From an uncultured bacterium (lineage in GTDB: Bacteria > Desulfobacterota > DSM-4660 > Desulfatiglandales > CALKZT01): a stretch of DNA of 53,887 nt. The position numbers and the translations under genes are program-made. Below are positions 35,340 through 53,887 of this stretch, piece by piece. The notes beneath the pieces were generated by a model, which did no database searches, was not told the DNA's origin, and saw only the letters and a list, made by a program, of their open reading frames with translations. How positions within the stretch are numbered: the first letter of the stretch is position 1; each line of letters begins with the position of its first letter. The stretch covers positions 1 through 53,887 of the forward strand of contig CALKZT010000079.1 in assembly GCA_938002815.1 (NCBI GenBank), written 5' to 3'.

Positions 35340-36316
35340 ACCTGAAGACGTTTATTTTAAAAAGGTCGATCCAAGTTGTGATAAGCTTTTATGTCATACT
35401 TTCTCTTCTCTTTTTTTTGTTAAGATTGTCACCAGGTGATCCTTATTCAAAATATATTGACAGTGATATGACTCAACAGGAAATTGAGTTAATAAAGAAA
35501 CAGATGGGTCTTGATAAACATATCTTTTATCAGTACTTGATCTATATTAGAAACCTAATCAAGATGGATTTTGGGTATTCCTTTCATTATGGGACGCATG
35601 TTTGGGATGTAATAAAGAATAAAATCTTAAACACAATACTACTCTTTACAACAAGTGTAATTGTATCTGCACTGGTAGGCATATTCCTTGGGAGAATAGC
35701 TGCTTGGAGGAGAAACACATCTTTAGATGCAGGGCTTACCATAGCAAGTCTTGTGACACATACGATATTTTTGCCATGGCTTGGGCTTTTGCTCATTTGG
35801 ATATTTGGCTATAAATTTGAACTCTTTCCCCTAAGCGGTATTTACACACCCGAGATATGGCTGGATCCTGAGTGTGGATTCTTAAGAAAGGCCTTGGATG
35901 TAATGCATCACATGGCCTTACCCTTTTTGTCACTTTTCTTGCTCCACTTTGGGGGCTATCTCCTCCTCATGAGAAATAGCATGTTGGGGACCCTTAAAGA
36001 GGACTACATTCTTACAGCCAGGGCAAAAGGGCTCAGGGAAAAGGATATCATAAACAGGCATGCCCTCCCCAATGCTGCCCTTCCAGTGGTCACTTCTGTT
36101 GGTCTGAGTCTGGCCTTTTCCATAAACGGGGGGGCCCTTACAGAAACGGTATTCTCCTGGCCTGGGATAGGGAGGGAGCTTGTGATGGCAGTGAGCCACA
36201 ACGACTATCCCCTTGCCCAGGCTGCCTTTTTGCTGATTGCCATCGTGGTCCTGCTGGCCAATGTGCTGGTAGATATACTTTATGCCTTTTTGGATCCCAG
36301 GATAAGGTATGAGTGA
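35336..36316 (+). CDS. Peptide ABC transporter permease (OppB/DppB-like)
   Basis: PGDP, DFGYSF, DYILTARAKGL, ETVFSWPGIG, LDPRIR. Confidence 0.93.
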   Translation: MNLKTFILKRSIQVVISFYVILSLLFFLLRLSPGDPYSKYIDSDMTQQEIELIKKQMGLDKHIFYQYLIYIRNLIKMDFGYSFHYGTHVWDVIKNKILNTILLFTTSVIVSALVGIFLGRIAAWRRNTSLDAGLTIASLVTHTIFLPWLGLLLIWIFGYKFELFPLSGIYTPEIWLDPECGFLRKALDVMHHMALPFLSLFLLHFGGYLLLMRNSMLGTLKEDYILTARAKGLREKDIINRHALPNAALPVVTSVGLSLAFSINGGALTETVFSWPGIGRELVMAVSHNDYPLAQAAFLLIAIVVLLANVLVDILYAFLDPRIRYE

Positions 36317-37208
36317 GTTAGGTTTTGAAGGCAAGGGGCCACTTAGAGAGGCATGGGAACTCTTTTTGGAGAGTTCCATCGGAAAGGCAGGGCTGATAAT
36401 ACTCTCTATCTTTGCCTTGATGGCGATCTTCAGTTTCGTTCCACCCATGATAGATCCCATGTATCATCCCATGAAGGGAGTAGATCCTGAGATCACCACC
36501 AGCCAGCCCCCTAGTCTCAGACACTGGCTGGGGACCGATTTTATGGGTAGAGACATACTGAGCCAGCTCCTTGCAGGTGCAAGGGTGGCATTTCTGGTGG
36601 GAATCACCGCTGCCCTGATGAGTATAATACTTGGGACCTTCTTGGGGATGTTGGCAGGCTACTTTGGAGGGGTTGTGGACACGCTCCTCATGAGGACAGC
36701 GGATGTGATAATGGTCTTGCCCACCTTGCTTGTGATCCTGGTCCTGGCATCCCTCTTCAAGGGGCTTTCCATATGGAGTATAGTGATTATCATTGCCCTC
36801 TTTAGGTGGCCGGGCGTCTCAAGGGTGATAAGGGCCCAGACCCTTTCTCTAAAGAATAGGCCCTTTGTGGAGGCAGCAAAGGCATTAGGGGCAAGCCATT
36901 TAAGGATCATGATGAGGCACCTTTTGCCCAATCTGGTCCCCCTTGCCTTTCTGTATATGACCTTTAGGGTCACTGCCGCCATTGTAATAGAGGCTGCCTT
37001 GGCCTTTTTGGGATTTGGAGACCCTACCACAGTAAGCTGGGGAATGATGCTTCAATGGGTCTGGAAGACGGGTCACATGTTTAAGGCCCCCTATTGGCTA
37101 CTACCCCCTGGAATCTGTATCTCACTAATTACCCTTTCCTTCTATATGATTGGCAGGGCAATGGAACAGGTGTTGGACCCAAGACTCAGGAAGGATTGGG
37201 AAGGTTGA
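36309..37208 (+). CDS. Peptide ABC transporter permease (OppC/DppC-like)
   Basis: HWLGTDFMGRD, FVEAAKALGAS, HLLPN, SWGMML. Confidence 0.93.
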   Translation: MSELGFEGKGPLREAWELFLESSIGKAGLIILSIFALMAIFSFVPPMIDPMYHPMKGVDPEITTSQPPSLRHWLGTDFMGRDILSQLLAGARVAFLVGITAALMSIILGTFLGMLAGYFGGVVDTLLMRTADVIMVLPTLLVILVLASLFKGLSIWSIVIIIALFRWPGVSRVIRAQTLSLKNRPFVEAAKALGASHLRIMMRHLLPNLVPLAFLYMTFRVTAAIVIEAALAFLGFGDPTTVSWGMMLQWVWKTGHMFKAPYWLLPPGICISLITLSFYMIGRAMEQVLDPRLRKDWEG

Positions 37209-38161
37209 TGAGGCTCCTTGAGGTAAGGGACCTGGCCCTAGAGTACAGGACAAAGAAAGGTCCGTTCCTGGCCTTGGAGGATATCCAATTCCATGTGGAA
37301 AAAGGTGAGGTCTTGGCCTTTGTGGGGGAGTCTGGCTGCGGAAAGACCACTCTGGGGATGAGCATTTTGAGGCTCTTGCCAGAGAATGCCCATATCCTTA
37401 GAGGCGAGATACTATTTGAAGGAAGGGACATACTCCGTCTCTCCCAAGAGGAGCTTAGGAGATACAGGTGGAAAGAGGTCTCCATGATATTTCAGGCAGC
37501 CATGAATTCCCTGAATCCGGTAAAGAGGGTAGGGGATCAGATAAAGGAGGCCATACAGACCCACGAGCCCGATATATCCAAGGGAGAGCTGAAGCGCAGG
37601 GTAGAGGCACTGTTTCGGCTGGTGAATCTTCCCTTGAGTAGAATAGGGGACTATCCCCATCAGTATTCAGGGGGTATGAGGCAGAGGGCTGTGATAGCCA
37701 TGGCCCTTGCCCTGAGGCCCAAGCTCATAATAGCAGATGAGGCAACCACGGCCCTTGATGTCATTGTCCAGGATCAGATCCTAAAGGAGACAAAGCTCCT
37801 CCAGAAGGAATTTGGGCTCAGTTTTATCTTCATTTCCCATGACATAGCCCTGGCCTTTGAGGTGGCAGATAGGGTGGCTGTTATGTATGGTGGCAGGGTC
37901 GTTGAAATGGGGAGTAGCCATGACCTTGAGGACTCACCCACACATCCCTATACCATGGCCCTTCTGGAGTCATATCCCACACTCACAGTGGAGCGAAGGC
38001 GCCTCCGCCCAATACCTGGAGACCCCATAAAGGTTACCGGTGGGGCCAAAGGTTGCAGATTTTTTATGAGGTGCCCGGAGGCAGAGGCAAGCTGCAAGGA
38101 GATTACCCCCCCTTGGGTGGAGGTGGGGAAAGGCCACATGGTCTCATGTCTTAGGAGATGA
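37208..38161 (+). CDS. Peptide ABC transporter ATPase (OppD-like)
   Basis: GESGCGKT, YSGGMRQR, ADEATTALD, HPYT, C-terminal Cys cluster; start at the TGATG overlap. Confidence 0.93.
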   Translation: MRLLEVRDLALEYRTKKGPFLALEDIQFHVEKGEVLAFVGESGCGKTTLGMSILRLLPENAHILRGEILFEGRDILRLSQEELRRYRWKEVSMIFQAAMNSLNPVKRVGDQIKEAIQTHEPDISKGELKRRVEALFRLVNLPLSRIGDYPHQYSGGMRQRAVIAMALALRPKLIIADEATTALDVIVQDQILKETKLLQKEFGLSFIFISHDIALAFEVADRVAVMYGGRVVEMGSSHDLEDSPTHPYTMALLESYPTLTVERRRLRPIPGDPIKVTGGAKGCRFFMRCPEAEASCKEITPPWVEVGKGHMVSCLRR

Positions 38162-38162
38162 G

Positions 38163-39188
38163 ATGGAAAGACCCATCTTAAAGACAAGGGCCTTATACAA
38201 GACCTACCTCACAAAGGGAGGATTCTTTGGCGGGGGTAAAAAGCGGATTGTAGCCCTCCATGACCTCAATTTGGACATATTCAGGGGTGAGATATTCGGG
38301 CTTGTGGGCGAAAGCGGATCCGGTAAGAGCACCTTTGGTAGGTTGATCATAAGGCTGGAGGATCCAGACAAGGGCGAGATCCTATTTGAAGACATGGATA
38401 TCCTGAGGCTAAGGGGTGATAGGTTACGTTCTTTTAGAAGAGAGGTGCAGATCATCTTCCAGGATCCATACCAGTCTTTGAACCCCTACCTGAGCGTAGA
38501 GGATATCCTAAAAGAGCCCCTCCAGATTCACAAGGTGGGGGATAAGAAGGAGAGGATGGAGATATTGGAGGAGACCATGTCCATGGTGGGGCTCGTGCCA
38601 CCATCTGCCTATATAAAGGCCTATACCCATCAGCTTAGTGGCGGGCAGAGGCAGAGGGTGGCCATTGCAAGGGCAATGGTCCTCCGTCCCAGATTCCTCA
38701 TCGCAGATGAGCCCACCAGCATGCTGGATGCATCCATCTCTGCCCAGCTCTTTGATATCTTCCTCAATTTCAAAGAAACCTATGGGGTTACCATCCTTTT
38801 TATTACCCATAACCTCTCTGCTGCCAATTATCTGTGTGATCGGGTGGGTGTACTCTATAAAGGTCATTTGGTGGAATTGGGAAGGTCACAGGAGATTCTC
38901 ACAAGGCCCTACCACCCGTATACCATGGCACTCCTGGACGCTGTGCCCAAGTTCGGCAGGTGCGACATCCCTACAGAATTCGGGACACTTCAGAGGCAAT
39001 TTGAAGGGGGGGACGAATCCCTGGGCTGCCCATTCTTCAAGAGATGCCAAAGGGCAAAGATGGTAAGATGTAGTAACGAACTGCCCGTACTCTTGGAGGT
39101 GGAGCCAGGACACTTTTCCTCCTGTTTCTATGGGGAGGAGATACACAAGGAGGTCATGGAATCGGCCGCTTGCAGATTGGGGATTTAG
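38163..39188 (+). CDS. Peptide ABC transporter ATPase (OppF-like)
   Basis: GESGSGKS, LSGGQRQR, ADEPTSMLD, HPYT. Confidence 0.93.
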   Translation: MERPILKTRALYKTYLTKGGFFGGGKKRIVALHDLNLDIFRGEIFGLVGESGSGKSTFGRLIIRLEDPDKGEILFEDMDILRLRGDRLRSFRREVQIIFQDPYQSLNPYLSVEDILKEPLQIHKVGDKKERMEILEETMSMVGLVPPSAYIKAYTHQLSGGQRQRVAIARAMVLRPRFLIADEPTSMLDASISAQLFDIFLNFKETYGVTILFITHNLSAANYLCDRVGVLYKGHLVELGRSQEILTRPYHPYTMALLDAVPKFGRCDIPTEFGTLQRQFEGGDESLGCPFFKRCQRAKMVRCSNELPVLLEVEPGHFSSCFYGEEIHKEVMESAACRLGI

Positions 39189-40642
39189 ACTCGGCAAAGG
39201 GGTTTTTGAAGAAAAGTAACATCGGCCTTCTTGGTCTCGGAATAACTGCCTTTTCAAGGATTTCACCCTTTTATCTGAATGACGGATACCAGCTCTTCTG
39301 TGGGAGGGCTACCCCTGATCTACGGCTTTTGAGGTCCATCGGGAGGATCAGATCCATGGAAGAGGAGACTGGGCATATTAGAGAGCCCATAACCTCCCTC
39401 GACCTATTGGAGTATGGGGCCTTTAGAGAGACCATATTATCCAGCAGAGCCAGATACCTTTATGTGTATCAGTCCTATAAGGGATTGGAGGCAATCCTAA
39501 AAGGCACAGGTAAGATTCTCATTGCCAATAGGGCCGAGCTGAGGGAGTCCCTATCCACAAAGCTCTCCTTTATCAGAATACTTGAAGAACTGGGCATTGA
39601 GCCCCTCAAGTGGATGCAGGTCTCTTCTAAGGCCTTTATGGGTTTGACGGCAAAGGAGTTGTTCTCCTCCTTCTCTGGGCCCTTTGTGGTGCAGGTGGCA
39701 GATATCACAAGGGGAGGTGGAAGGGGCCTCTTTTTTGTGCGGGGAGAAGATGCCTTAAGGAGGGTGAGAGAGGTGGTAGGAAAGGGGGTCCTCCATAGAA
39801 CACGTGTCACTGAACTCCTAATAAGACCCTTTGTGGAGGGGATTTCTATATCTGCCCTCGGCTGTGCCACAAGGCAAGGCACTGTCATTGGGCCACTTCA
39901 ATTGCAGTTGATAGACCTATATGGAGAAAGCCCCTTGGGAGAGGGAGGGATCTTTTGCGGCCACTCATGGGACAGGACTCATAGGGAGGGCATCTGCTCT
40001 CAGGTCCAGAATGTGGTAAGAAGGGTAGGGGATCTGCTCTTTCAAAAGGGGTATCGTGGTATGTTTGGTATAGATTTCATAGGAGACGGGGAAAGGGCCT
40101 ATCCTTTGGAGTTGAATCCCAGACTGACAGGTGCTTTGCCTGTGCTGACCTTCCTTCAACTTAGAGACGGGATTTTGCCCATTGAATTCGTGCACATATT
40201 GAGTTTTTTTGAAGAGGCAGAGTTTGACGTGGAGGCCCTAAACTCCATCTTTCAAAGGGGGACAGAGGGCGCCCATGTCATTCTCTTTGGAGACGAAACA
40301 AAGGAGGAATTTTACCCAAAGACCCTTATCCCTGGGATCTACAAATGGGAGAGTGATTGGGCAAGGTACGTGGGATCTGGCCACCTCTTTCCAAAGGAGG
40401 AGCATGAATTTGCCATCTTAGAAGGCCCTTATGGAAGTATAAGGCCTGGTGATGAGGGCTGGAATAATTTTCTGAGGATCCTAAGAATAGTATTCCAAAA
40501 CCCCATAACAAATGCTAATGGTGCATTAAAAGAATGGGCAAGAAATGTGATAGGGTGGACGAGAGGGGCTATCCTTGGAGAAAGGGGATGGAAGATATCC
40601 TTTGCTCATAACAATCCCGCACTCCTCAAACAGAGTCCCTAA
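39170..40642 (+). CDS. ATP-grasp domain protein (uncharacterised ligase)
   Basis: GGGRGLFFV, PFVEG, GMFGIDFI, LELNPRLTGA; start uncertain. Confidence 0.75.
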   Translation: MQIGDLDSAKGFLKKSNIGLLGLGITAFSRISPFYLNDGYQLFCGRATPDLRLLRSIGRIRSMEEETGHIREPITSLDLLEYGAFRETILSSRARYLYVYQSYKGLEAILKGTGKILIANRAELRESLSTKLSFIRILEELGIEPLKWMQVSSKAFMGLTAKELFSSFSGPFVVQVADITRGGGRGLFFVRGEDALRRVREVVGKGVLHRTRVTELLIRPFVEGISISALGCATRQGTVIGPLQLQLIDLYGESPLGEGGIFCGHSWDRTHREGICSQVQNVVRRVGDLLFQKGYRGMFGIDFIGDGERAYPLELNPRLTGALPVLTFLQLRDGILPIEFVHILSFFEEAEFDVEALNSIFQRGTEGAHVILFGDETKEEFYPKTLIPGIYKWESDWARYVGSGHLFPKEEHEFAILEGPYGSIRPGDEGWNNFLRILRIVFQNPITNANGALKEWARNVIGWTRGAILGERGWKISFAHNNPALLKQSP

Positions 40643-41363
40643 GGAGATAAGAGGTAAGCTTGCCTTAGGGGAGGAGGAGGTCTCCAATTCCTGGGACCTG
40701 GGGAGCAGTGAAATATATGGCAGTCTTCCTGTCCGCTACATCCTTAAGGCCAAATATAGCAGGATTGCAGCCGACCTAAACAGGTCACCAAGGGCAGAGG
40801 GCCCCAAAGGGGTAGTGCCTCTGTCTGACTACTCAGGCAGATCCATCTATTTAGATGGCTTCGTCCTCACAGAGGAGGAGACGAAGAGGAGGCTGAAGGT
40901 CTACTACTGGCCATTTCACAGGAAGATAGAGAGGCTTGTTAGAGGGGGGAGGGTCATGGGTATAATAGACTGCCACACCCTAAACGGCATAGGGCCCAAG
41001 AAGGCACCTGACTGTGGAAAGAGGAGGCCTGATGTAGTCTTGGGTAATAACGGAGGCCCTGAGGGTGGGCCTGTTGCTGAGATGGGAGAAATCACTTGTG
41101 ACCCATGGCTTTTGAGGGAGATGGCCTCAATACTGAAAGATTTGGGACTCTCTGTGAAATTAAACGATCCTTATCCAGGGGGTTACATTGTTGTCCACTA
41201 TGGAAGGATTCTGAGGAGGGCTGGAGGTTTTGGGATCCAGATGGAGATAAACCAAGACCTCTTCACAGACCCCCTCTCCGGATCACTTAACCCTACTTGG
41301 GTAGAGGCCCTCAGCAACACCTTAGAGACCTTCTTGGGGAGGCTCTTTGAGCTTATCCGATAG
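40575..41363 (+). CDS. N-formylglutamate amidohydrolase family protein
   Basis: TIPHS, SRIAADLNR, YYWPFH, IDCHT, LNDPYPGGYI, IQMEINQDL. Confidence 0.88.
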   Translation: MEKGDGRYPLLITIPHSSNRVPKEIRGKLALGEEEVSNSWDLGSSEIYGSLPVRYILKAKYSRIAADLNRSPRAEGPKGVVPLSDYSGRSIYLDGFVLTEEETKRRLKVYYWPFHRKIERLVRGGRVMGIIDCHTLNGIGPKKAPDCGKRRPDVVLGNNGGPEGGPVAEMGEITCDPWLLREMASILKDLGLSVKLNDPYPGGYIVVHYGRILRRAGGFGIQMEINQDLFTDPLSGSLNPTWVEALSNTLETFLGRLFELIR

Positions 41364-43085: not shown

Positions 43086-43952
43086 ATGGAATGTAATAGC
43101 TGCAACCAGGAGGACTGTGCGGCCAAAAAGAGAGGGTCTGAGGAGACCGACAAGGAATACGAAGAAAGGAAGAGGCTCTATTCCAGGCTGTGCAGGATAA
43201 AAAAGAAGATACTGGTCCTTTCAGGGAAAGGTGGGGTTGGCAAAAGCACTGTGGCAGTGAACCTGGCATTTTCCTTAAGAAAGGCAGGGTATAAGGTTGG
43301 GCTCTTGGATACAGATATACATGGGCCTAGTATTCCCACCATGTTGGGTCTAAACGGCAAGAGGCCATCTATGGATCCAGATGGGATGGTCCCATTGGAT
43401 GTGCATGGGGTAAAGGTAATGTCTGTGGGCCTCTTTTTGAGGGATGAAGATGAGGCAGTGATCTGGAGAGGGCCTCTCAAGATGGGAGTGATAAAGCAGT
43501 TCTTGATGGACGTAAAGTGGGGGGATTTGGACTATCTGGTTATAGACTCTCCTCCTGGCACAGGGGATGAGCCACTTTCGGTCTGTCAACTGATAGGGGA
43601 CATTACTGGAGCAATCATTGTGACCACTCCCCAAAGGGTATCTGAGGTGGATGTGAGAAAGTCCATCACCTTTTGCCAACGTCTGAATGTCCCTGTTTTG
43701 GGCGTGGTGGAGAACATGGGAAGTTTTGCCTGTCCCAAATGTGGAGAGGTAACAAAGCTCTGGGGAGAAGGCGCAGGCCAGAAGATATCCGGGGATATGG
43801 GTGTCCCATTCTTGGGAAGCATACCCCTAGACCCTCAGCTTGCCTATTTTTGTGATGCAGGGAAGGTCTTCGTGGAGGAGTTCGGTGAGACCGCCACTGG
43901 TAGGAGCTTTTCTGAGATCCTAAAACCCATTCTTGAAAGAGACCAAAAATAG
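43086..43952 (+). CDS. mrp: Mrp/NBP35 (ApbC) Fe-S cluster carrier ATPase
   Basis: SGKGGVGKST, DIHGPS, WRGP, DSPPGTGDE, ENM..F.CPKC. Confidence 0.94.
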   Translation: MECNSCNQEDCAAKKRGSEETDKEYEERKRLYSRLCRIKKKILVLSGKGGVGKSTVAVNLAFSLRKAGYKVGLLDTDIHGPSIPTMLGLNGKRPSMDPDGMVPLDVHGVKVMSVGLFLRDEDEAVIWRGPLKMGVIKQFLMDVKWGDLDYLVIDSPPGTGDEPLSVCQLIGDITGAIIVTTPQRVSEVDVRKSITFCQRLNVPVLGVVENMGSFACPKCGEVTKLWGEGAGQKISGDMGVPFLGSIPLDPQLAYFCDAGKVFVEEFGETATGRSFSEILKPILERDQK

Positions 43953-44143: not shown

Positions 44144-44162
44144 ACTAAAAAAGGGGGTATCT

Positions 44163-44453
44163 ATGGTGCTCTTAGAGGTCCTACACGAAGGTGAGCATTG
44201 AATTCCATGTGTCTACATGGCCAGGTTGGCCCAAGGGGTCGTCTCTCAAATGGAGGGGGTAGAATTCAAGGTGGTACATACCAAGACACTTGAGGGGGCA
44301 ACTCGGTACTTTCAACTCTCCATGACGACCACAAGAAAACCCCCTGTCCCTTCTATATTCATAAATGGTGAACTTGCCTTTGAATCAACGCCCACAGAGG
44401 ATGAACTGATAGAGAGAATAAACCAAGCATTAAAAGGCTCTAAAGATGTCTAA
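44163..44453 (+). CDS. Thioredoxin-fold selenoprotein 1 (UxxC: U13-I-P-C)
   Basis: AAGGGGG RBS, ATG 44163, in-frame TGA 44199-44201 (MVLLEVLHEGEH-U-IPCVYM), downstream GGCCA-GGT-TGGCC hairpin, cis-Pro motif VPSIFINGE. Confidence 0.85.
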
Positions 44454-44745
44454 GGAGACGGATAAGGATAAAATCGCACTTGATTTACTGGTAACCGACT
44501 TTCATCAGTGAATGGCTTGCGTCTATATGGCGGAAACGGTAAGGTCCTTACCGGAAGAGATAAAAGAGAAAATTGTTATAAGAGAATGGGACATGAGGAC
44601 AAGAGAAGGGGTAATGAAATATAGAGAACTAAGAGCTAAAATGCTACCTTCTATAGCAATAGATGGGGATCTTATTTACGAAGCAATAATACCAGCATCT
44701 GAGGAATTAGTAGAAAAAATCAAGTCCTACCTAAATGGGAAGTAA
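44446..44745 (+). CDS. Thioredoxin-fold selenoprotein 2 (UxxC: U22-M-A-C)
   Basis: ATG overlaps the end of gene 1, in-frame TGA 44509-44511 (LDLLVTDFHQ-U-MACVYM), downstream CGGTAAG-GTC-CTTACCG hairpin, LPSIAIDGD motif. Confidence 0.85.
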
Positions 44746-45745
44746 ACTGGAGGTAAGGATTATGCTGAATAATCGAAGTGTATATATTGAAGATGTAATA
44801 ATTGAAGGCTTCAAATCATTTTCTGAAGAAACACATATGAGCTTCAAGAAAGGTATAAACGTCATAATAGGTAATAATGGGGTTGGGAAGTCTAATATAC
44901 TTGATGCAATAGCCTGGTGTCTTGGAGAAAATGACTTGTATAAACTCAGGTGTTATTATGCTGATGAAATATTCTTTGCAGGAAATAGGCAATATCCTCC
45001 AGCCAAAACAGCAGCAGTTACCCTCAAAGTGAACTATAGCATTGGTGAAACAAAAGGCACCTTAAATTTGACAAGGAAGGCGTACCTATCTGGCGAAGAG
45101 TCCTACTTTATAGATAGTGCACAAGTTTCAAGGGCCGAATATGAAGAAAAACTGGATGTCCTTGGATTAAATAATGTCATAAAATCTATAATAAGACAGG
45201 AACAAATTAACGACATCTTTTCCCTCCCTGCAGAAAAGAGATTTGATATGATTAGCGACTTATTCGGTATCAGCGATAGAGAAGAGGTGACCAGAATGGT
45301 AACCTCTTCTAAATCCACATTTGTAAATTATATGACAACTCTTGTCCCAAGATTTAATCCTGACATAGTCAATGAGAATGGTATATTAGAAATTTTAATA
45401 TCCACAGGATCAAATACAAGAAGACATATCCACCAGCTGAGTGGGGGAGAGAAATCTATAGTGAGCCTTGCTTTTAAAGCTTCACTGTTTGACCAATTGG
45501 GAAGTACTATATATCTTTTTGATGAAGTTGAGCCATCACTTGATTATGTAAATCATAAATCAATACAAGTATTTCTCAAAGATATCAGCAAAAATAAACA
45601 GCTTATAATTATAACACATCTAAGAGCAACAGTTGAAATGGCAGATACTCTTCATGGAGTAAGAGCAAGGCCTGATGGTTCAAGTTTTATGAAATTCTAC
45701 TTTGTGATGGACAAAAGGCTTTTAAGATTGTACAAATGTTGCTAA
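44735..45745 (+). CDS. Short SMC/RecF-like ABC ATPase (head domain only) ending in Cys-Cys
   Basis: EGFKSF, GNNGVGKSNILDAI, Q-loop IRQ, LSGGEKS, FDEVEPSLD, ITH; only 336 aa; may start at ATG 44762. Confidence 0.85.
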   Translation: MGSKLEVRIMLNNRSVYIEDVIIEGFKSFSEETHMSFKKGINVIIGNNGVGKSNILDAIAWCLGENDLYKLRCYYADEIFFAGNRQYPPAKTAAVTLKVNYSIGETKGTLNLTRKAYLSGEESYFIDSAQVSRAEYEEKLDVLGLNNVIKSIIRQEQINDIFSLPAEKRFDMISDLFGISDREEVTRMVTSSKSTFVNYMTTLVPRFNPDIVNENGILEILISTGSNTRRHIHQLSGGEKSIVSLAFKASLFDQLGSTIYLFDEVEPSLDYVNHKSIQVFLKDISKNKQLIIITHLRATVEMADTLHGVRARPDGSSFMKFYFVMDKRLLRLYKCC

Positions 45746-46695
45746 AGAGCACATTTGTTTAAGTTTTCTGTAATAAATGAAATGTCCATATTCCACCCAA
45801 TAAATACAATTTTATTCGGAAACTTGTCATATACTTTTTCAAAAAGCCCTTTTCCTCCAGCAAGATTAATAAAATATGTACCTTCATCAGATACGAACCA
45901 ACCCTTTATCCTAAATATGTTTAGTGGAAAATTAAGGAGAGTTTGCTTTATACATTCGAGCCTAAATCTTACTTCACTTGTATATGAAAATGAGGTATAT
46001 CCTTGGAAACTGAAAGTTTTCGGAAGAATGTCTGCATCATGATGGTGGTGATCGTGTGAAATTATGGGGAAGATATCTTTGGGCATCTTTGTTTCTATGG
46101 AGGGTGGAAGAAATATTACGTCAGGGTCAACTTTTGCAAATACAGTGGGTATAACCTGCTTGGAAGGGAAGTGGTGGTATATGGATTGAAGGATTACAGG
46201 AACACGCTCATGGGGAACCAGATCCACCTTGTTCAGTATTATGGTGTCAGCAGCTTTGAGCTGGTTTTCAAAGAGAGGTCCAAATATGTCTCTACCTTCC
46301 CAGTATTCTGCATCAAGTACTGTTATTACCTTAAATAGGGCTACCCTCTCCCTCAAATATCCATCAGAGAAGAGGGCGATGATGTTAGCGGGGTCTGCCA
46401 ATCCAGTGGCCTCTATGAGAAGCCAGGATGGGTGATATACCTCAAAAAGCTCCAGGAGCGTGCTTCTAAGGTCAGCCTGGACAGTGCAGCAGATGCAACC
46501 ACTTGTAAGCTCTACAACGTTTGAGCCTATGTCTTTGAGAAGATCACCATCTATCCCCACATCTCCAAATTCATTGACTATCACAGCTACATCCCGTAAA
46601 TCCCCTTTCCAGGAGAGAATCTCTCTTAGGAGTGTGGTCTTACCTGAGCCCAAAAATCCACTTATGAGTATTGCCCTGCTCTGTTTTTCTCTCAT
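45742..46695 (-). CDS. COG0523/CobW family metal-binding GTPase
   Basis: GFLGSGKTT, NEFG, GCICC, EATG, NKVD, HDHHHHD, RIKG; start set at MREKQ. Confidence 0.93.
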   Translation of the reverse strand: MREKQSRAILISGFLGSGKTTLLREILSWKGDLRDVAVIVNEFGDVGIDGDLLKDIGSNVVELTSGCICCTVQADLRSTLLELFEVYHPSWLLIEATGLADPANIIALFSDGYLRERVALFKVITVLDAEYWEGRDIFGPLFENQLKAADTIILNKVDLVPHERVPVILQSIYHHFPSKQVIPTVFAKVDPDVIFLPPSIETKMPKDIFPIISHDHHHHDADILPKTFSFQGYTSFSYTSEVRFRLECIKQTLLNFPLNIFRIKGWFVSDEGTYFINLAGGKGLFEKVYDKFPNKIVFIGWNMDISFITENLNKCAL

Positions 46696-46725
46696 ATTAC
46701 TGACTCCCCTTTTTCGTGAATCTAC

Positions 46726-46734
46726 TGGTATAAT
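46726..46734 (+). promoter_or_regulatory. Extended -10 promoter for the V4R/two-component operon
   Basis: TGGTATAAT (TGnTATAAT) 45 nt before ATG 46780. Confidence 0.5.
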
Positions 46735-46779
46735 AGATAAAATGAGACTAAAGGACAACCTTGATAACGGAGCCCAGAT

Positions 46780-47310
46780 ATGGCCTTAATAAAATGGGAG
46801 AAAGACCTCACTCGAAAAGGCGGCCAGGTCCTCCTCTCAAGCCTGCCCATAGCAATGCATTGTCACCATTATAATATTAATCTCCAGGCTATGCTGGAAG
46901 AGACCTTTGGGGAAATCGGTATCGATCTCATGTGCCGTTCCGCAGAGGAGGCCACCTACTCCATGTTTCGTGAATATTTTAAACGATATCCAAATATAAA
47001 GACGATCAAGAGCAGGATTGAACTTGCTTGCACCCTTTATCAGAGCTGCGGCCTTGGGATCATACACTTTGTAAGCCTCGATGAGGAAGGGGGTGAGGCA
47101 GTGAGCCCATTTAGTCATTATGTTACAGGCTGGCTAGCCAAACATGGGAAGAGGGATACCCCAGGTTGTCACTTCACAAGGGGGTGGATTGCTGGGCTCT
47201 GTAATCTACTATATGAAAAACACCTTGGTTACTTTAAGGTGGCTGAAGTTGCCTGCAAGATGATGAGGCATGAAACTTGCGTCTTCAAGATAGCAGGGAG
47301 TCACAGATGA
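46780..47310 (+). CDS. Stand-alone V4R domain protein 1
   Basis: HCHHYN, GLG, CHFTRGWIAG, EVAC...C.F V4R Cys pattern. Confidence 0.82.
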   Translation: MALIKWEKDLTRKGGQVLLSSLPIAMHCHHYNINLQAMLEETFGEIGIDLMCRSAEEATYSMFREYFKRYPNIKTIKSRIELACTLYQSCGLGIIHFVSLDEEGGEAVSPFSHYVTGWLAKHGKRDTPGCHFTRGWIAGLCNLLYEKHLGYFKVAEVACKMMRHETCVFKIAGSHR

Positions 47311-47352
47311 TATCACCATTAGTAGTTAACTAAGTTAAACATCCAAAATATC

Positions 47353-47970
47353 ATGGCAATTGATACTCAAAAGATTATACAGGCAATAATGGAAGGTTCA
47401 AAATACAGAGATGCAAAAGGAATTATCCCTATTTTTGGTGTGTACCTCTCATTGTTTTCTGTAGACTACTATAATAAGCTTTCCTTTGAATTTGAACTTA
47501 TGATGGAGCCTAGTAGACAAACTAAAGCCGAGCAACTGTTGATTGATGCTGCCCAAGAGTGTGGATATGCCACATTCCATGGTATAAGGACGTCAAAGGA
47601 ATGGGAAAAAATCGTTCAACCTATGATAGAGACTCAAGAAGATGAATTGCAAGGCTTCATATCAGTTGCAATAGGGCTGGGATGGGGAAATATTGAGCTT
47701 GTGAAGTTGGTGCCAGGCGAAAACTTAGTTTTAAGAGCGACTGAGTCTTATGAAGCAGATGGCTACATTTCACGACACGGGTTGTCTAAATCAGGCAAGT
47801 GCTATATGTTGAGGGGTGTTAGCGCCGCATTTATGGATCTAATTTATGGAGACAGCTATCCCGAAGGGTATAATACATTTACGGCGATTGAACCAAAATG
47901 TAGAGCCAAAGGAGATGATTTTTGTGAATTCGTTGTTCAAAAATCACATAAAAAAGAATATACTTGCTGA
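47353..47970 (+). CDS. Stand-alone V4R domain protein 2
   Basis: GLGWG, SYEA, CYMLRG, EPKCRAKGDDFCEFV. Confidence 0.85.
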   Translation: MAIDTQKIIQAIMEGSKYRDAKGIIPIFGVYLSLFSVDYYNKLSFEFELMMEPSRQTKAEQLLIDAAQECGYATFHGIRTSKEWEKIVQPMIETQEDELQGFISVAIGLGWGNIELVKLVPGENLVLRATESYEADGYISRHGLSKSGKCYMLRGVSAAFMDLIYGDSYPEGYNTFTAIEPKCRAKGDDFCEFVVQKSHKKEYTC

Positions 47971-50203
47971 ATCAAAGAAGCAAGACCTTAGGTGTTGGGA
48001 ATACCTTCAATGCAACAAGATGCTTTGCCCTGCCTTTGAAAAATTTGACTCGGAATGTTGGTTTATTTCTAAAACAAGTTGCACAATAATCCCATTAAAA
48101 GGGAGCATGTTTCAAAAAATAGGTTACTGTCTTTATTGCTCCTATTTTACGTTTAGGGCAACTCTACATCCTGATGGAGTAAGTTCATTTCTTTCAGCTC
48201 AAATTCAGAGATACAACTTTGAAGCTCTAAAGAAGATATATGAGAGGGAAGAGAGTTTTATTGAAACATTAAACAGAATACCCGATGGTGTTTTTACAAC
48301 AGATAGGGAGTTTCGGATAACCTATTTCAACCCAGCAGCTGAAAAAATAACAGGCTTTTCAGCGGTTGATGCAGTGGGTATGTACTGCAAAGATGTATTC
48401 AAAAATACTGTATGCGAGACCTCCTGTGCTTTAAAAAGGGCTATAAAAGTTCAAAGTGATATCTTAAATCAAGAATATGAAATTACCAATATATATGGGC
48501 AAAAAATTCCCATAATATGTTCTACCTCGGCCTTTAGAGATAAAGACGGAGAGATAGTGGGTGGCCTTGAGATCTTTAAGGATATCAGCGAACTGAAAAA
48601 ACTGCAAAATGAGATCGTTGCAAGCGAACAGAAGTACCGGAGGATATTTGAAGGAAGCCATGATATGATATTTATCTCTACCGAACAAGGGAAAATTAGG
48701 GATATAAACGAGGCGGGCGTCAAAATGCTTGGATATTCCAATAAACAAGAGGTATTAGATATAGAATCTGTGCAGAGTTTATACCTAAGACCTGAATATC
48801 GAGATAAATTTATAGATCTAATACAGCACAAAGGTTATGTTAAGGATTATGAAACAATATTTAAGCGTAAAGATGGCACAAAGATTCATGTTCTGATATC
48901 TGGCAGGAAATACTACAATGAAAAGACAGATGAAGTGGAAATTGAAGGCATCATAAAAGATATAACACAGAGAAAATTAGTCGAAGATGATTTGAAAAAG
49001 AGAAATAGGGAATTATCGCTAATCAATTCAATTGCAGTTGCTATGAATCATACTATGGATATAAATTACATTCTTGATGTGACTTTGCGAAATCTCTTAA
49101 AAATTATAAGAAACAGCGAGGGAGCTATATTTCTGTTAAACAGAGATAAGAGGAGTTTTGAAATAGCAACTGCCACGGGTAGCCTAGCAGAACTTCGAAA
49201 AAAAGAAATAGAGATCCAATTTAAAGACTTGTTGTTAATGAAAAAGCTTTTTAAAGAAGATGTTGACCTCCCTCCCACAAGCACCTTCCCACCATTTCAT
49301 ATAAGTGTTTCCACGAAAACCACTGATAAGCTCCTTTGGCTTAAATGTTTTCTAATTGCCTTTAAAGGGAAGGCCATTGGCTTTTTTGCATTCGATGCAA
49401 GGGCAAAGGACCTCCTGGGGGCCCATGTTCAACGTCTTATGGGTTCACTGGGGAACTTTTTGGGTGGGGCCATTGAAAATGTTAGATTGATGAACACCAT
49501 AAGTGGGCATCAGCAGGAGTTACAAAGGCTTACCCAAAGGCTCTTTGCTACACAAGAGGAGGAGAGGAGGCGCATTGCAAGAGAACTCCATGATGAGGCA
49601 GGGCAATCTTTGACTGCCATAAATCTTGCCCTCGAGCGTCTGCAAGGGCTTATACCCCCAGATAATATCAAGCTTATAGATGAACTTCATGAAATTCGGC
49701 GGATGGTCCTTAGGGCTTCCACCGAGATCAGGCAACTTTCTTATAAGCTTCATCCCACCCTCTTGGTAGACTTGGGGCTTGAGCCAGCACTCCATTCTTA
49801 TTTCAAGCAGATTCAAGCAAGGGTAGGGATACAGATCGATTTCAAAATGATAGGTTTTGACAGGCGCCTGGATTTAGATATGGAGACTACCCTATATAGA
49901 TTTGCCCAGGAGGCCTTGACAAACACCTTAAAGCATTCTGGGGCGGAGCATTTTCGGCTCTCTATAATAAAGAGCTACCCCAATATCATATTCTTGGCAG
50001 AAGATGATGGCTGCGGTTTTGACCCGTTAGGTGCCGGAGAGAAGAACTCTTCCCTTGGTCTACTGGGCATGAGGGAGCGAAGCTCCCTACTGGGTGGAAC
50101 CTTTTCTGTAAAATCTCAGATAGGAAAGGGCACCAAGATAAGGATAGAGATCCCTTTGGGAGGGAGGGACCATGAGCCAAAAGATAAGGGTATTGATAGC
50201 TGA
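47846..50203 (+). CDS. Cytoplasmic NarX/UhpB-type (HisKA_3) sensor kinase with Cys-rich N-terminus, two PAS and a GAF-like domain
   Basis: CWEYLQC...CPAF...CWF...C...CLYC; two PAS; EEERRRIARELHDE; QEALTNTLKH; DDGCGF; GLLGMRER; true start probably downstream (for example 47915). Confidence 0.9.
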   Translation: METAIPKGIIHLRRLNQNVEPKEMIFVNSLFKNHIKKNILAESKKQDLRCWEYLQCNKMLCPAFEKFDSECWFISKTSCTIIPLKGSMFQKIGYCLYCSYFTFRATLHPDGVSSFLSAQIQRYNFEALKKIYEREESFIETLNRIPDGVFTTDREFRITYFNPAAEKITGFSAVDAVGMYCKDVFKNTVCETSCALKRAIKVQSDILNQEYEITNIYGQKIPIICSTSAFRDKDGEIVGGLEIFKDISELKKLQNEIVASEQKYRRIFEGSHDMIFISTEQGKIRDINEAGVKMLGYSNKQEVLDIESVQSLYLRPEYRDKFIDLIQHKGYVKDYETIFKRKDGTKIHVLISGRKYYNEKTDEVEIEGIIKDITQRKLVEDDLKKRNRELSLINSIAVAMNHTMDINYILDVTLRNLLKIIRNSEGAIFLLNRDKRSFEIATATGSLAELRKKEIEIQFKDLLLMKKLFKEDVDLPPTSTFPPFHISVSTKTTDKLLWLKCFLIAFKGKAIGFFAFDARAKDLLGAHVQRLMGSLGNFLGGAIENVRLMNTISGHQQELQRLTQRLFATQEEERRRIARELHDEAGQSLTAINLALERLQGLIPPDNIKLIDELHEIRRMVLRASTEIRQLSYKLHPTLLVDLGLEPALHSYFKQIQARVGIQIDFKMIGFDRRLDLDMETTLYRFAQEALTNTLKHSGAEHFRLSIIKSYPNIIFLAEDDGCGFDPLGAGEKNSSLGLLGMRERSSLLGGTFSVKSQIGKGTKIRIEIPLGGRDHEPKDKGIDS

Positions 50204-50837
50204 AGATCACACCATAGTAAGGCAGGGGATAGCAAGGCTTCTGAAGGATCAGGAAGGTATCCTTGTAATAGGTGAGGCATCTAACGGCAAGATCGCGGTG
50301 GAAAAGGCGGTGGAGCTTGAGCCGGACGTGGTGATAATGGATATAGCCATGCCCTTACTAAATGGTGTAGAGGCCACCAAGAGGATCAAAAAGGCCTTGC
50401 CTAAGACAAAAGTGATAATCCTTTCCATGTACTCTAACGAGCACTATATTCATGAGCTACTTGAGACGGGTGTGTCGGGGTATCTCCTGAAAGACTGTAG
50501 TGGTAGGGACATCTTGAATGCCATAGAAGCTGCCATAAAGGGGGAGACCTACTTGAGCCCAGGTGTCTCAAAGGTGGTTGTGGAGAACTACTTGTCTACC
50601 AATCAGAAGATGAGCAGGGATGAGAGGTTTAAAACCCTTTCAGACAGAGAAAGGGAGGTATTTCAACTTATTGCAGAGGGCTATTCCACAAAGCAGATAG
50701 CTGACATGCTTTGCGTAAGTACCAGTACCGTAAAGACGCATCGGGCTAAGATCATGGAAAAGCTAAATCTGGATACCCACGCCAAGCTCATCAGGTATGC
50801 AATACAGCTTGGGTTAGTGGAAAGGGATAATGTTTAA
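50172..50837 (+). CDS. NarL/LuxR family response regulator
   Basis: AEDH, MDIAMP, GYLLK; HTH LSDREREV...TVKTHRAKIMEKL. Confidence 0.95.
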   Translation: MSQKIRVLIAEDHTIVRQGIARLLKDQEGILVIGEASNGKIAVEKAVELEPDVVIMDIAMPLLNGVEATKRIKKALPKTKVIILSMYSNEHYIHELLETGVSGYLLKDCSGRDILNAIEAAIKGETYLSPGVSKVVVENYLSTNQKMSRDERFKTLSDREREVFQLIAEGYSTKQIADMLCVSTSTVKTHRAKIMEKLNLDTHAKLIRYAIQLGLVERDNV

Positions 50838-50962: not shown

Positions 50963-51027
50963 CCAAACCGATGTAGATGGTCCGAGAAGTATGTCGACAC
51001 CCTAAGCCCACAGAAGGGAGGTGTTCT

Positions 51028-51978
51028 ATGTTTAGATTTTCCACTGTGCAGAAAAGAGCAGAGATAGGAGGTGTGAAGGTAGGAGGTCAGCCTGGGGAAT
51101 ATGCGACTGTGGTGATCTCGAGCATATTTCAGAAGGGGGACAAGGTATTTGAGGGGAAGAGGAAGGAAGGTTTTAACGAGAAGAGGGCAGAGGAGCTACT
51201 GAGGACACAGGATAGGCTCAGTGAGGAGACAGGGGTACCGGGTATGGCAGACATTGTGGGGAACAGTGGTCAGGAGTTCAAGCTTTTCATAGACTTTGTG
51301 ACCTCTGTGAGCGATATGCCTTTTTGCATAGATGCGTGGGTGATGAAGCCCAAGTTGGAGGGGGCTGCGTATTGTGCTGAGAAGGGTTTATTGGATCGGA
51401 TGTTTTACAATTCTCTGACGGTATGGGAGCAAGACATAGAGACTGAGATAAGGGAGATATACCAGATAGGGGTGAAGCACGTGTTGTTGGTGAGTTTTGA
51501 TCCGGCAGATCAGATGCCCGGTGGGAGGATAACAGGTACACAGAAGCTATTGGATGCCATAGAGCGGGTAGGAGCCAAGTTTGAGACGATCATGGTGGAT
51601 ACCTCAGTGATGAACGGACCTGCCACAGCGTTATGTGGTTTAGCGAACCGTCTTATAAAGGAGAAGTGGGGATTTCCGTGTGGTAGTGCCCCATCGAATG
51701 GTTCATATATGTGGAAGCAGGCGAAGGAGCTATGGGGATTTAAGGGGTGGTCAGCAGCGGATGCTGCTTTGGAGGCGCTTTCGTCATATATGTACCATGA
51801 TTTTATCTTTTCAGGGCCCATGGCAGGGGCACCGAGGATCTTTCCTGCTGTGGCATTGGCGGATGCCTTTTTGGCAACGGCTGTATTTGGGGAGACAAGG
51901 GAGCTTCCGAAGGCCGAGAGTCATCCACTCTACAAGCTATTTCCTGATTTTGTCGAGCAGTTGAAGGCCATCAAATAA
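51028..51978 (+). CDS. mtrH: MtrH/MtgA-like methylcorrinoid:tetrahydrofolate(pterin) methyltransferase
   Basis: N-terminus MFRF..VQ....IGGVKVGGQPGEY, YNS, GSAPSN, HPLYKLF; ATG after GGAGG. Confidence 0.85.
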   Translation: MFRFSTVQKRAEIGGVKVGGQPGEYATVVISSIFQKGDKVFEGKRKEGFNEKRAEELLRTQDRLSEETGVPGMADIVGNSGQEFKLFIDFVTSVSDMPFCIDAWVMKPKLEGAAYCAEKGLLDRMFYNSLTVWEQDIETEIREIYQIGVKHVLLVSFDPADQMPGGRITGTQKLLDAIERVGAKFETIMVDTSVMNGPATALCGLANRLIKEKWGFPCGSAPSNGSYMWKQAKELWGFKGWSAADAALEALSSYMYHDFIFSGPMAGAPRIFPAVALADAFLATAVFGETRELPKAESHPLYKLFPDFVEQLKAIK

Positions 51979-51995: not shown

Positions 51996-53048
51996 ATGGG
52001 AGAGTTGACGCCCAAGGAGAGGGTATTGAGGTTACTGAGGAAGGAGCCCATAGATACGATGCCCTTTTTCAGTGGGATGGGGATGGTGGTGATGCCTGGG
52101 ATAGAGAAGGTAGGTTGTAAGTTTGCGCAGATACACACGGATGCCAGTCGTATGGCCATGTCGGCCATATGGTCATCGAGGCTTATGGGATTTGACTGTG
52201 TGGTAATTCCCTATGACATGACCATGGAGTCCGAGGCAGTGGGGAATGAGATAAGCCTATACGAGAACTCAGAGGACATACTGTATCCGACGATCCCCCA
52301 CAAGAAATGGAAGACGATGGAGGAGGTGGAGATACCGAAGGACATAATGGAGAGGGGGAGGCTACCTTTACTGCCCAAGGCGATCAAGATCATAAAGGAG
52401 GAGGCGCCTGAGCTACCCATAGGGTGTTGGCAGTTGGGGCCATTTACACAGGCGGGGCAGATGTTAGAGCTGGATATGATCTTAAAGGCGGTATTTAAGG
52501 AAAAGAAGAAGGTGGAAGAGTTATTGGACAAGCTGACGGATATGATCATAGAGCTTGGGAAGTGGCTTCAGGCGTCTGGCTGTGATTATATCACCCTCAG
52601 GGAGCCAGGTGTTGCTGCGGATCTTCTAAGCCCGAGGACCTTTAAGGAGCTGATACAACCTAGGCTGACCAGGATACTGGATGCCTGGAAGTCTCCCAAA
52701 TTATTGCACATATGTGGACAGACGGATCCTTTGATCACCATGATGGCAGAGTGTCATGCAGATGGTCTAACAGTGGATATCAAGAACAACATCAAAGAGT
52801 CGAGGAAGAAGCTTGGTCCTGATGTGCTGTTGATGGGGAATGTGGACACCTACAAGATCACCTGTGATCCATCTACCACAGTGGAGCAGGCCGTAGAGCA
52901 CATAAAGTGGATCATAGACAATGGTGTGGATGCAGTAATGCCAGGGTGTGATCTGTGGCCTGCCATAGTTTTCGAGAACATGAAGGCATGTGTAGATACC
53001 ACACATGAATACGGAAGAAGACCCAGCCCAGCAGTGGGTAGGCTCTAA
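51996..53048 (+). CDS. MtaA/CmuA (UroD-fold) corrinoid-dependent methyltransferase
   Basis: GPFT, LLSPRTF, Zn motif LHICG...PGCD, MGNVD. Confidence 0.88.
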   Translation: MGELTPKERVLRLLRKEPIDTMPFFSGMGMVVMPGIEKVGCKFAQIHTDASRMAMSAIWSSRLMGFDCVVIPYDMTMESEAVGNEISLYENSEDILYPTIPHKKWKTMEEVEIPKDIMERGRLPLLPKAIKIIKEEAPELPIGCWQLGPFTQAGQMLELDMILKAVFKEKKKVEELLDKLTDMIIELGKWLQASGCDYITLREPGVAADLLSPRTFKELIQPRLTRILDAWKSPKLLHICGQTDPLITMMAECHADGLTVDIKNNIKESRKKLGPDVLLMGNVDTYKITCDPSTTVEQAVEHIKWIIDNGVDAVMPGCDLWPAIVFENMKACVDTTHEYGRRPSPAVGRL

Positions 53049-53072: not shown

Positions 53073-53747
53073 ATGACAACAAAGGAAGAGCTACTGAAAC
53101 AATTAAAGGAAGGGGTCATCAATTATAACGAGGAACAGGTAAAGGAGGCTGCGTCAAAGGCCATTGAATTGGGTTACCCTGCCCTGGAGATGATAATGGA
53201 TGGGCTCGCAGCAGGTATGGAGGTGGTAGGGGAACTCTATGAGCGTAACGAATACTTTGTGCCTGAGGTGCTTATGTGTGCTGATGCCCTTTACGCTGGT
53301 CTTGACATCCTAAGACCCCATGTACCTAAGCAGGAATCAGGGGTGGTGGCCCAGGTGGTTATAGGGAGCGTTCAAGGAGACGTGCATGATATAGGGAAGA
53401 ACCTCGTAAAGATGATGTTTGATGTAGCCGGATGGCAGGTTCACGACCTTGGGAGGGATGTGCCTTTGGAGAAGTTTGTGGAGGAGCAGTTGAGGACGGA
53501 TGCGGAGGTGGTGGCCATGTCAGCCATGATGACCACTACCATGTTAGGCATGAAAAAGGTGATCAAGATGATAAAGGAGAAGAACCCCAATGTGGCCATA
53601 ATGCTTGGGGGTGCACCTGTCACAAAGGATGTGGCCAAGCTGTTTGGTGCTGATGGTTATGCAGAATCAGCAGGGAATGCGGTGCAAGAGGCCATTAAGA
53701 TGATAGCGAGGCTGAGGGAAATGCAGCAGACTAAGGCAGCCAACTGA
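53073..53747 (+). CDS. Methyltransferase cognate corrinoid protein
   Basis: Cap domain GL..GMEVVG...EYFVPEVL; B12 motif GDVHDIGKN; SAMMTTT; GGAP; GADGYA. Confidence 0.95.
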   Translation: MTTKEELLKQLKEGVINYNEEQVKEAASKAIELGYPALEMIMDGLAAGMEVVGELYERNEYFVPEVLMCADALYAGLDILRPHVPKQESGVVAQVVIGSVQGDVHDIGKNLVKMMFDVAGWQVHDLGRDVPLEKFVEEQLRTDAEVVAMSAMMTTTMLGMKKVIKMIKEKNPNVAIMLGGAPVTKDVAKLFGADGYAESAGNAVQEAIKMIARLREMQQTKAAN

Positions 53748-53759
53748 TTGGAGGGGTTT

Positions 53760-53887
53760 ATGGACCAGAAGGCCAAAGTAATCTTTCAACCATCAGGCAG
53801 GAGGGGGGAGGTCCCCAAAGATATCAGTTTAATAGAGGCATCCAGGCTGTTGGGTGTGGATATAGAGGCCCTATGTGGGGAGAAGAA
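53760..53887 (+). CDS. Partial: probable reductive activator of corrinoid enzymes (RACE/DUF4445, N-terminal 2Fe-2S domain), cut by the window end
   Basis: GGAGG RBS; MDQKAKVIFQPSGRRGEVPKDISLIEASRLLGVDIEALCGEK; follows the corrinoid protein. Confidence 0.75.
   Translation, partial: MDQKAKVIFQPSGRRGEVPKDISLIEASRLLGVDIEALCGEK

Follow-up and report, generated by a model that had tools for sequence, protein, structure and literature searches.

Selenothioredoxins of the UxxC kind are the commonest kind of selenoprotein, so that what surprises in the locus reported here is the gene cluster and not the two genes of this type (P1 and P2) that it contains. By the bSECIS rule, a hairpin with a G-first loop lies about 16–37 nt after the UGA. 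One family related to both genes has been catalogued as NF047660, the HUIPC motif thioredoxin-like (seleno)proteins; the 2026 review PMC13188914 includes HUIPC among the 119 families of its Table 1, with Haft and Tolstoy 2025 as the source, and in its accessible part assigns the family no function. On the side of methyl transfer, Kountz and Balskus (PMC10418091) argued that a His-Cys-Cys site marks S/Se methyltransferases and described type 1 mlp clusters, which are defined as being without a THF methylase, encode His-Cys-Cys enzymes, occur in Sec-using anaerobes and were proposed to perform methyl-S/Se chemistry. The main text of that paper mentions neither SMC nor CobW, and 'thioredoxin' appears only in the title of a reference.

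The window analysed here is a whole contig of 53,887 nt (C79) from an uncultured member of the Desulfobacterota, whose genome assembly comprises 2.25 Mb in 128 contigs and is 90.7% complete. A sequence-only reading of it had proposed two tandem, hidden selenoproteins of the thioredoxin fold and a link between the second of them and an mtaA-like gene at 51996 through proteins in which a similar domain is fused to a UroD/MtaA-family methyltransferase.

Two predicted selenoprotein genes in tandem

The table-11 ORFs at this position start at 44217 and 44512 and are truncated at the N-terminus, and extension through one in-frame TGA each gives full ORFs. P1 (44163..44453, forward strand) then encodes 96 residues with U13, follows a Shine-Dalgarno-like AGGGGG (44152..44157, forward strand; 5 nt before the ATG) and carries the motif H-U-IPCVYMA, in which HUIPC forms residues 12–16. 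P2 (44446..44745, forward strand) encodes 99 residues with the motif Q-U-MACVYMA (U22-x-x-C25, TGA at 44509–44511) and a Leu-Pro pair at 67–68, and its ATG overlaps the end of P1 (TAA at 44451–44453) by 8 nt. The TGA occupies the first position of a CxxC-type motif in both (HUIPC and QUMAC), and the two proteins are homologous (27 of 84 positions identical, 32%, E 1e-13). On all these points, from the truncated frames to the ribosome-binding site, the overlap and the kinship, the sequence-only reading was accurate.

The source genome has all four of the genes that the same reading had named for checking: selA, a full-length selB and selD score over their cut-offs, selD itself carrying one TGA, and tRNA-Sec (selC) is present. 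The TGA also aligns with Cys in homologues, for P1 in 17 Cys copies and for P2 in 16 paralogues with a CAAC motif and in fusion proteins. With the comparative evidence given below, we predict with high confidence that the in-frame TGA of both genes is read as selenocysteine.

Contig C32 of the same genome carries a second SelB-like factor with a short C-terminus and a second UCA tRNA within a run of HdrA/MvhD-like genes near selD (G000:C32:43-2893, locus L128). The acceptor stem of this tRNA(UCA) is 8 bp long, its position 73 is U (U73) and the 467-aa SelB-like gene lies downstream of it; the pair resembles the selC* tRNA-Cys and selB* that PMC5389517, in its accessible part, describes as able to insert Cys at UGA. 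Through such a pair the TGA might often be read as cysteine, and P1 and P2 would partly be Cys proteins. This is very improbable, given that a canonical tRNA-Sec, SelA, full-length SelB and SelD are all encoded in the genome, that a motif scan of the genome gave one CysRS and no second copy, and that SECIS-type hairpins are kept in TGA forms only; a Cys reading would moreover alter the residue and not the gene model.

Conservation of the coding frame and of the recoding signals

P2 orthologues were gathered by a profile scan of GTDB with patterns from downstream of the TGA, which confirmed 98 of 107 candidate stretches; the best 80 of these 98 were used. TGA stands at the Sec position in 80 of the 80, and no Cys was found there among them. 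Over the 11 codons before the TGA, pairwise differences number 5476, 1982 and 14474 at codon positions 1, 2 and 3, and 71 distinct stretches contain no stop; by this pattern the region upstream of the P2 TGA evolves as coding sequence. The sequence-only reading had held that a lack of homology upstream of the TGA, or of an aligned Cys or Sec at its position, would count against it; we found coding-type conservation for the former and, for the latter, the Cys copies of P1 and the CAAC paralogues of P2.

The predicted bSECIS hairpin of P2 (CGGTAAG-GTC-CTTACCG, 44537..44553, forward strand) has 97.0% of cells paired over 77 distinct sequences, is complete in 63 of them and has a G-first loop in all 77, and its loop-closing pair has undergone an A-U to G-C double change in seven sequences, including the window. 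The structure was derived from the window sequence, which biases these figures toward pairing. Two observations are independent of that derivation, so that the support for the hairpin survives the bias: third codon positions within it are near-fixed (Val GTA in 75/77, Leu TTA in 76/77 and Pro CCG in 75/77), and the same offsets in 16 Cys paralogues of the CAAC type pair in 25%.

P1-type genes near P2 were found by motif pattern in 29 of the best 80 P2 loci. These 30 genes have TGA (12), Cys (17) or Ser (1) at the Sec position. In the 13 TGA forms (window included) the predicted P1 hairpin (GGCCA-GGT-TGGCC, 44219..44231, forward strand) has 90.8% of cells paired and a G-first loop in every case and is complete in eight, and all five pairs occur in none of the 18 Cys/Ser forms. 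The loops begin 22 nt (P1) and 32 nt (P2) after the TGA, both within the bSECIS spacing, and both hairpins, now conserved comparatively, lie where they had been placed from the sequence alone. When the 62-nt stretches were folded singly, neither was remarkable (z -1.38 for P2, not unusually stable; z -0.23 for P1, whose lowest-energy fold prefers a neighbouring hairpin), so that the evidence for the hairpins is comparative and not energetic.

There is next to no chance that the TGA is a true stop and that short ORFs or pseudogenes are all that exists. In favour of that reading, databases hold almost only truncated forms, just two of 84 matches exceeding 84 aa (97 and 111 aa, each with W in place of the TGA codon); against it stand the coding-type conservation before the TGA, the presence of this codon in all 80 orthologues (the best 80 of 98), the Cys counterparts and the conserved hairpins.

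Fold and family membership

An AlphaFold model of P2 (Sec entered as Cys) has a pLDDT of 91.8 and the beta-alpha-beta-alpha-beta-beta-alpha topology of thioredoxins; helix 1 begins with the motif and, by the alignment, a conserved Pro precedes beta3. The top Foldseek matches of the model are thioredoxins, and all 45 P2/CAAC alignment rows keep C25 and L67-P68 unchanged. P2 has, on the model, a thioredoxin fold, in keeping with the original description of a UxxC thioredoxin-fold selenoprotein.

The HMM of NF047660 gives P1 115.4 bits, over the curated cut-off of 105, and P2 49.3 bits, below it. By this score, together with the aligned copies and the tree, P1 is a member of NF047660 and adds one more member to a family catalogued in 2025, which corrects the sequence-only reading on this point. 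The model gives weak matches to each of the 45 P2/CAAC rows (best E 3.2e-13), no NCBIfam model (release 20) scores over its cut-off for P2, and none covers the 45 rows better than NF047660. In PMC13188914, over its accessible part and the whole of Table 1, no entry bears the name of a QUxAC protein, the generic thioredoxin entries being judged by name only, or of a UroD/MtaA-family selenoprotein; Haft and Tolstoy 2025 may still mention P2. The BSepDB supplement gave no match, which carries little weight since even 'thioredoxin' is absent there. On these sequence comparisons we regard P2 as a Sec-only sister family that has no model of its own and that we did not find described, with at least 80 GTDB loci in several phyla. 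Protein databases hold almost only truncated forms of it.

Paralogues and fusion proteins

A tree of 92 rows (21 of 81 P2 sequences, 31 P1 sequences and subsets of the other paralogues) was built from only 102 columns, and the window rows form long branches, which calls for caution in reading the following support values. P2 has a clade to itself (95/87), to which the UASG and CAAC forms are sister: it groups at 100/95 with a second Sec-only paralogue (motif TDQ-U-ASG), this pair is sister to free-standing CAAC proteins at 100/89, and the fused CAAC domains branch next with weak support (85/45). P1 lies on the other main branch, where the 13 Sec forms make up one clade (97/86) nested among Cys forms. 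The separate branches and the different hairpin positions suggest that P1 and P2 are old paralogues that probably gained Sec separately; a recent tandem duplication was rejected on their 32% identity and their separate branches.

The second Sec-only paralogue (TDQ-U-ASG[PAT]YM) lacks a resolving Cys and has the same hairpin. It was seen directly 3' of P2 at eight of the best 80 of 98 P2 loci, of which seven are from Bacillota and one is from a spirochaete (L027:6345, L073:6353, L075:6327, L076:6348, L077:6339, L088:6348, L094:6348 and L097:6346). Natural fusions in one ORF of a DYCLPC form with a Cys form of the HUIPC type occur at L062:1951-2604 and L092:384-1025.

Single-sequence searches, both of GTDB and for longer P2 homologues, returned nothing; the profile versions succeeded. 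Among 7998 candidates scored, 725 longer proteins match the P2/CAAC profile. In the best 120 of these 725, 105 have 430–480 aa, of which 104 carry CAAC and 104 carry PGCDMP, and the His ligand is absent from all 104 readable sites, where F, L or M-F-V-C-G stands in its place. By its motifs the UroD half of the fusions falls in the FF[VI]CG...PG[C/U]DMP clade. One example, at L017, is a UroD-family protein of 449 aa that ends in a CAAC thioredoxin domain and adjoins CobW. A fusion-type match at L110 (G076:C1:583114-584427) has internal stops in its thioredoxin part and is possibly a decaying gene.

By these matches the UroD-CAAC fusion is common, and the proposed fusion does exist. Its thioredoxin domain is, however, closest to the Cys sister with CAAC and not to P2: the single-sequence search gave no longer homologue of P2, and the fusions found by profile (best 120 of 725) carry the CAAC form. 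Nor does the fusion tie P2 to the mtaA gene at 51996, as had been suggested, since its methyltransferase half is far closer to a gene that the source genome carries on contig C40 (median 35% identity, 223 bits) than to the mtaA gene of the window (23%, 66 bits). A link between P2 and that mtaA gene persists on another ground, that of synteny in three genomes of one genus, described below.

Gene neighbourhood

Upstream of P1 lies a gene for an Mrp/ApbC Fe-S carrier ATPase (43086..43952, forward strand), which is a local neighbour only; it was rejected as a conserved partner of P2, being present in none of the best 80 of 98 P2 loci. Farther upstream, a run at 31784-41363 contains, by eye, two ATP-grasp-like genes (RimK- and glutathione synthetase-like) and a peptide ABC transporter and, judging from translations, another ATP-grasp-like ORF and an N-formylglutamate amidohydrolase-like ORF. 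A scan for promoters and terminators gave results at chance level.

Directly 3' of P2 is a gene for a 327-aa, head-only SMC-type ABC ATPase (44762..45745, forward strand), which has no hinge, retains Walker A, signature, Walker B and H-loop, and ends in Cys-Cys immediately before the stop; this C-terminus is invariant in 28 of 28 aligned sequences. The ATPase lies within 1.1 kb 3' of P2 in 62 of 72 evaluable loci among the best 80 of 98, and it is the most constant partner of P2. It is followed by a metallochaperone-type GTPase of the CobW family (45742..46758, reverse strand), two V4R proteins, a PAS histidine kinase and a response regulator (46780..50837, forward strand), and, all on the forward strand, an MtrH/MtgA-type methyl-corrinoid:THF methyltransferase recognised by family scan (50977..51978), directly before the MtaA/UroD-family methyltransferase with a His-Cys-Cys site (LHICG...PGCD; 51996..53048), a corrinoid-binding protein (53073..53747) and a corrinoid reductive activase of RACE/AcsV type, of which the contig contains no more than the 5' end (53760..53887; 79% identity to the N-terminus of the activase of locus L129).

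Across the same best 80 of 98 P2 loci, 68 have a B12-related gene within 6 kb and 34 have a component of methyl transfer; CobW is found in 48, a V4R homologue in 22, an MtrH/MtgA-type gene in 17 and a thioredoxin reductase homologue in only five. Where the locus is full-length, a methyltransfer gene lies within 6 kb in only 24 of 44. A TSCPD-domain gene stands directly 5' of P2 in 67 of 74 evaluable loci. It was not found in the source genome (90.7% complete), where P1 and P2 form a direct tandem, and for that reason TSCPD was rejected as an obligatory partner; it occurs in five of the 11 P2 genomes sampled. At L040:5031-5978 and its kin, the TSCPD domain (TIGR03905) is fused to an unannotated domain of about 215 aa that looks, by eye, like a degenerate metallophosphoesterase.

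The sample from which those 11 genomes come comprises 401 genomes, spread evenly over the phylum; related genomes are not independent, and the figures are counts and not a test. P2 is present in 11 of the 401 (in 10 with the TGA seen, in one cut by a contig end), the head-only SMC ATPase in 10, always adjoining P2, the TSCPD fusion in five and the His-less MtaA clade in 11, eight of these among the 10 with the P2 TGA seen. Genomes G316 and G417 lack P2 and encode both CAAC and the His-less methyltransferase, and in G071 P2 lies on a 5-kb contig with none of the cluster genes.

A fuller arrangement, the g60 cluster (L129-L131), occurs in three genomes of one genus, which are not independent. 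It runs, co-oriented, from a window-type MtaA, corrinoid protein, activase, DUF2284 gene and CobW through a Sec-MtaA, CAAC, a further Cys paralogue, P1, P2 and the SMC ATPase to a small Cys protein, an ArsE-type thioredoxin and a second CobW; its copies of the window genes are 72–75% (MtaA), 83–84% (corrinoid protein) and 40–42% (CobW) identical. In the source genome the Sec-MtaA is on contig C40 (G000:C40:863-1897, L014:3-1028), as a His-less MtaA/UroD-family methyltransferase with an in-frame TGA at PG-U-D. Sec-MtaA has TGA in 16 of 16 copies among the best 80 of 98 P2 loci, with Cys forms in L108 and L110, and its hairpin (GTTCC-GNN-GGAAC) is complete in 15 of 15 distinct sequences. Next on C40 stand thioredoxin paralogues of the CAAC and QG kinds, then a small Cys protein, a thioredoxin of the ArsE type and CobW, with a thioredoxin reductase-like gene at the end of the cluster.

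Contigs C40 and C34 both open with the 3' end of an activase, their first 141 bases being identical, which suggests two collapsed activase copies, each followed by a DUF2284-like gene. By sequence overlap alone C34 is an equal candidate for continuing the window; C40 continues the order of the g60 cluster and lacks only the window-type CobW and the P1-P2-ATPase block, and this synteny favours C40. C79 and C40 are thus likely to join, and the P1-P2-ATPase block appears, from gene order, to have changed its place as a whole inside one cluster. Synteny would thereby tie P1, P2, the ATPase, Sec-MtaA and the window-type MtaA into one corrinoid cluster, and the source genome and three others, which unite P1, P2, Sec-MtaA and the SMC-head ATPase, give the family a concrete setting. 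For P2 that setting can be tested in named species (Desulfofundulus australicus, D. thermosubterraneus and Desulfatitalea alkaliphila).

Proposed function

Our preferred reading, to which we assign a probability of roughly 0.6, is that P1 and P2 serve as dedicated thiol/selenol reductants, or redox helpers, of the corrinoid methyl-transfer cluster, which would pass the methyl group of an S-, Se- or metalloid-methyl compound to its corrinoid protein and on to tetrahydrofolate. With its selenolate, which opens helix 1 (U13 in P1, U22 in P2), each protein would attack a partner at a disulfide or selenenylsulfide; the second Cys of the motif (C16 or C25) would resolve the bond with the partner, and the product of the thioredoxin reductase-like gene on C40 would re-reduce the U-x-x-C pair. 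The work is likely to be split among the paralogues. Fusion to the methyltransferase suggests the His-less enzyme as client of the CAAC sister: its Cys and Sec could make up a redox pair and not a zinc site, and the CAAC sister would recycle that pair. Co-occurrence with the ATPase points P2 at the Cys-Cys tail of its neighbour. Vicinal C-terminal cysteines act as redox or metal-relay groups, as in MerA, and by reducing this tail P2 may keep a metal- or cofactor-handling step reduced; where the four-Cys TSCPD protein is present, P2 may act on that as well. P1, existing as a Cys or Sec form, would be an optional extra reductant. Against this role count the lack of any P2-methyltransferase fusion among the profile matches, the full-length loci without a methyltransfer gene nearby, the isolated P2 of G071, G316 and G417 with their P2-less methyltransferases, and the scarcity of thioredoxin reductase homologues near P2.

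It is possible but doubtful that the two selenoproteins are instead metal carriers, whose UxxC would bind Co, Zn or a toxic metal(loid) and, as the corrinoid or methyltransferase matures, deliver it to CobW or to the ATPase's Cys-Cys tail. CobW in 48 and a cob(I)alamin adenosyltransferase in 20 of the best 80 of 98 P2 loci, a CbiM-type cobalt transporter and DUF2284 genes nearby, and the invariant Cys-Cys tail would all suit a carrier, whereas redox thioredoxins have their motif at this same position and share the conserved Leu-Pro, and it is a thioredoxin reductase-like gene that closes the C40 cluster.

That the cluster detoxifies or scavenges methylarsenic, methylselenium or methylmercury, with P1 and P2 reducing the metalloid substrate or product directly, is quite unlikely. 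Among the best 80 of 98 P2 loci a MIP channel occurs in nine, and an arsenite methyltransferase/DUF2284-type gene in three; there are also several thioredoxins of the ArsE/MTH895 type, and the MtaA of the window has the His-Cys-Cys site tied to S/Se methyl transfer (PMC10418091). These genes are found in a minority of loci, however, with none beside P1 and P2 in the window, and the MtgA/MtrH gene and two-component regulators fit the use of a growth substrate equally.

An extension of the redox-helper role, unlikely as it stands, would make P1 and P2 the redox arm of a hitherto undescribed, selenium-rich corrinoid demethylation machine found in anaerobes that strips methyl from methylated Se, As or Hg and feeds tetrahydrofolate. 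Its parts would be up to four Sec proteins (P1, P2, the UASG paralogue and Sec-MtaA), a thioredoxin relay and the Cys-Cys-tailed SMC-head ATPase; if it were true, these loci would supply candidate genes for the anaerobic oxidative demethylation of organometalloids. We found no literature joining TSCPD to selenocysteine, UroD plus a thioredoxin domain to corrinoid, or dimethylarsinate to corrinoid.

Comparison with known systems

P2 differs from the NF047660 HUIPC family in its QUxAC motif, in its place on the other main branch of the tree, in being always Sec and in a hairpin that lies 32 and not 22 nt after the TGA. The nearest solved sequences are those of the MTH807/MJ0307 and MTH895/ArsE thioredoxins (PDB 1NHO and 1FO5; E 6e-4 and 2e-3), which share with P2 a short glutaredoxin-like thioredoxin fold but are distant, below family cut-offs and without Sec. 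The C-terminal domain of the proteins of about 450 aa named 'uroporphyrinogen decarboxylase family' (PF01208, with PF13192 in many) has the same fold and the CxxCxYM signature; unlike P2, it has Cys, is about 30% identical to P2 and is attached to a His-less methyltransferase half.

With the type 1 mlp clusters the window cluster shares MtaA-like proteins, a corrinoid protein and a RACE activase. That class is delimited by the absence of a THF methylase within 20 kb, and an MtrH/MtgA gene lies at 50977-51978; two or more candidate Mlps, together with a corrinoid protein and RACE, are co-oriented in L129-L131 and are split by the contig end in the source genome. The present cluster is also set apart from type 1 mlp by its His-less Cys/Sec enzyme, its thioredoxin paralogues and its SMC-head ATPase.
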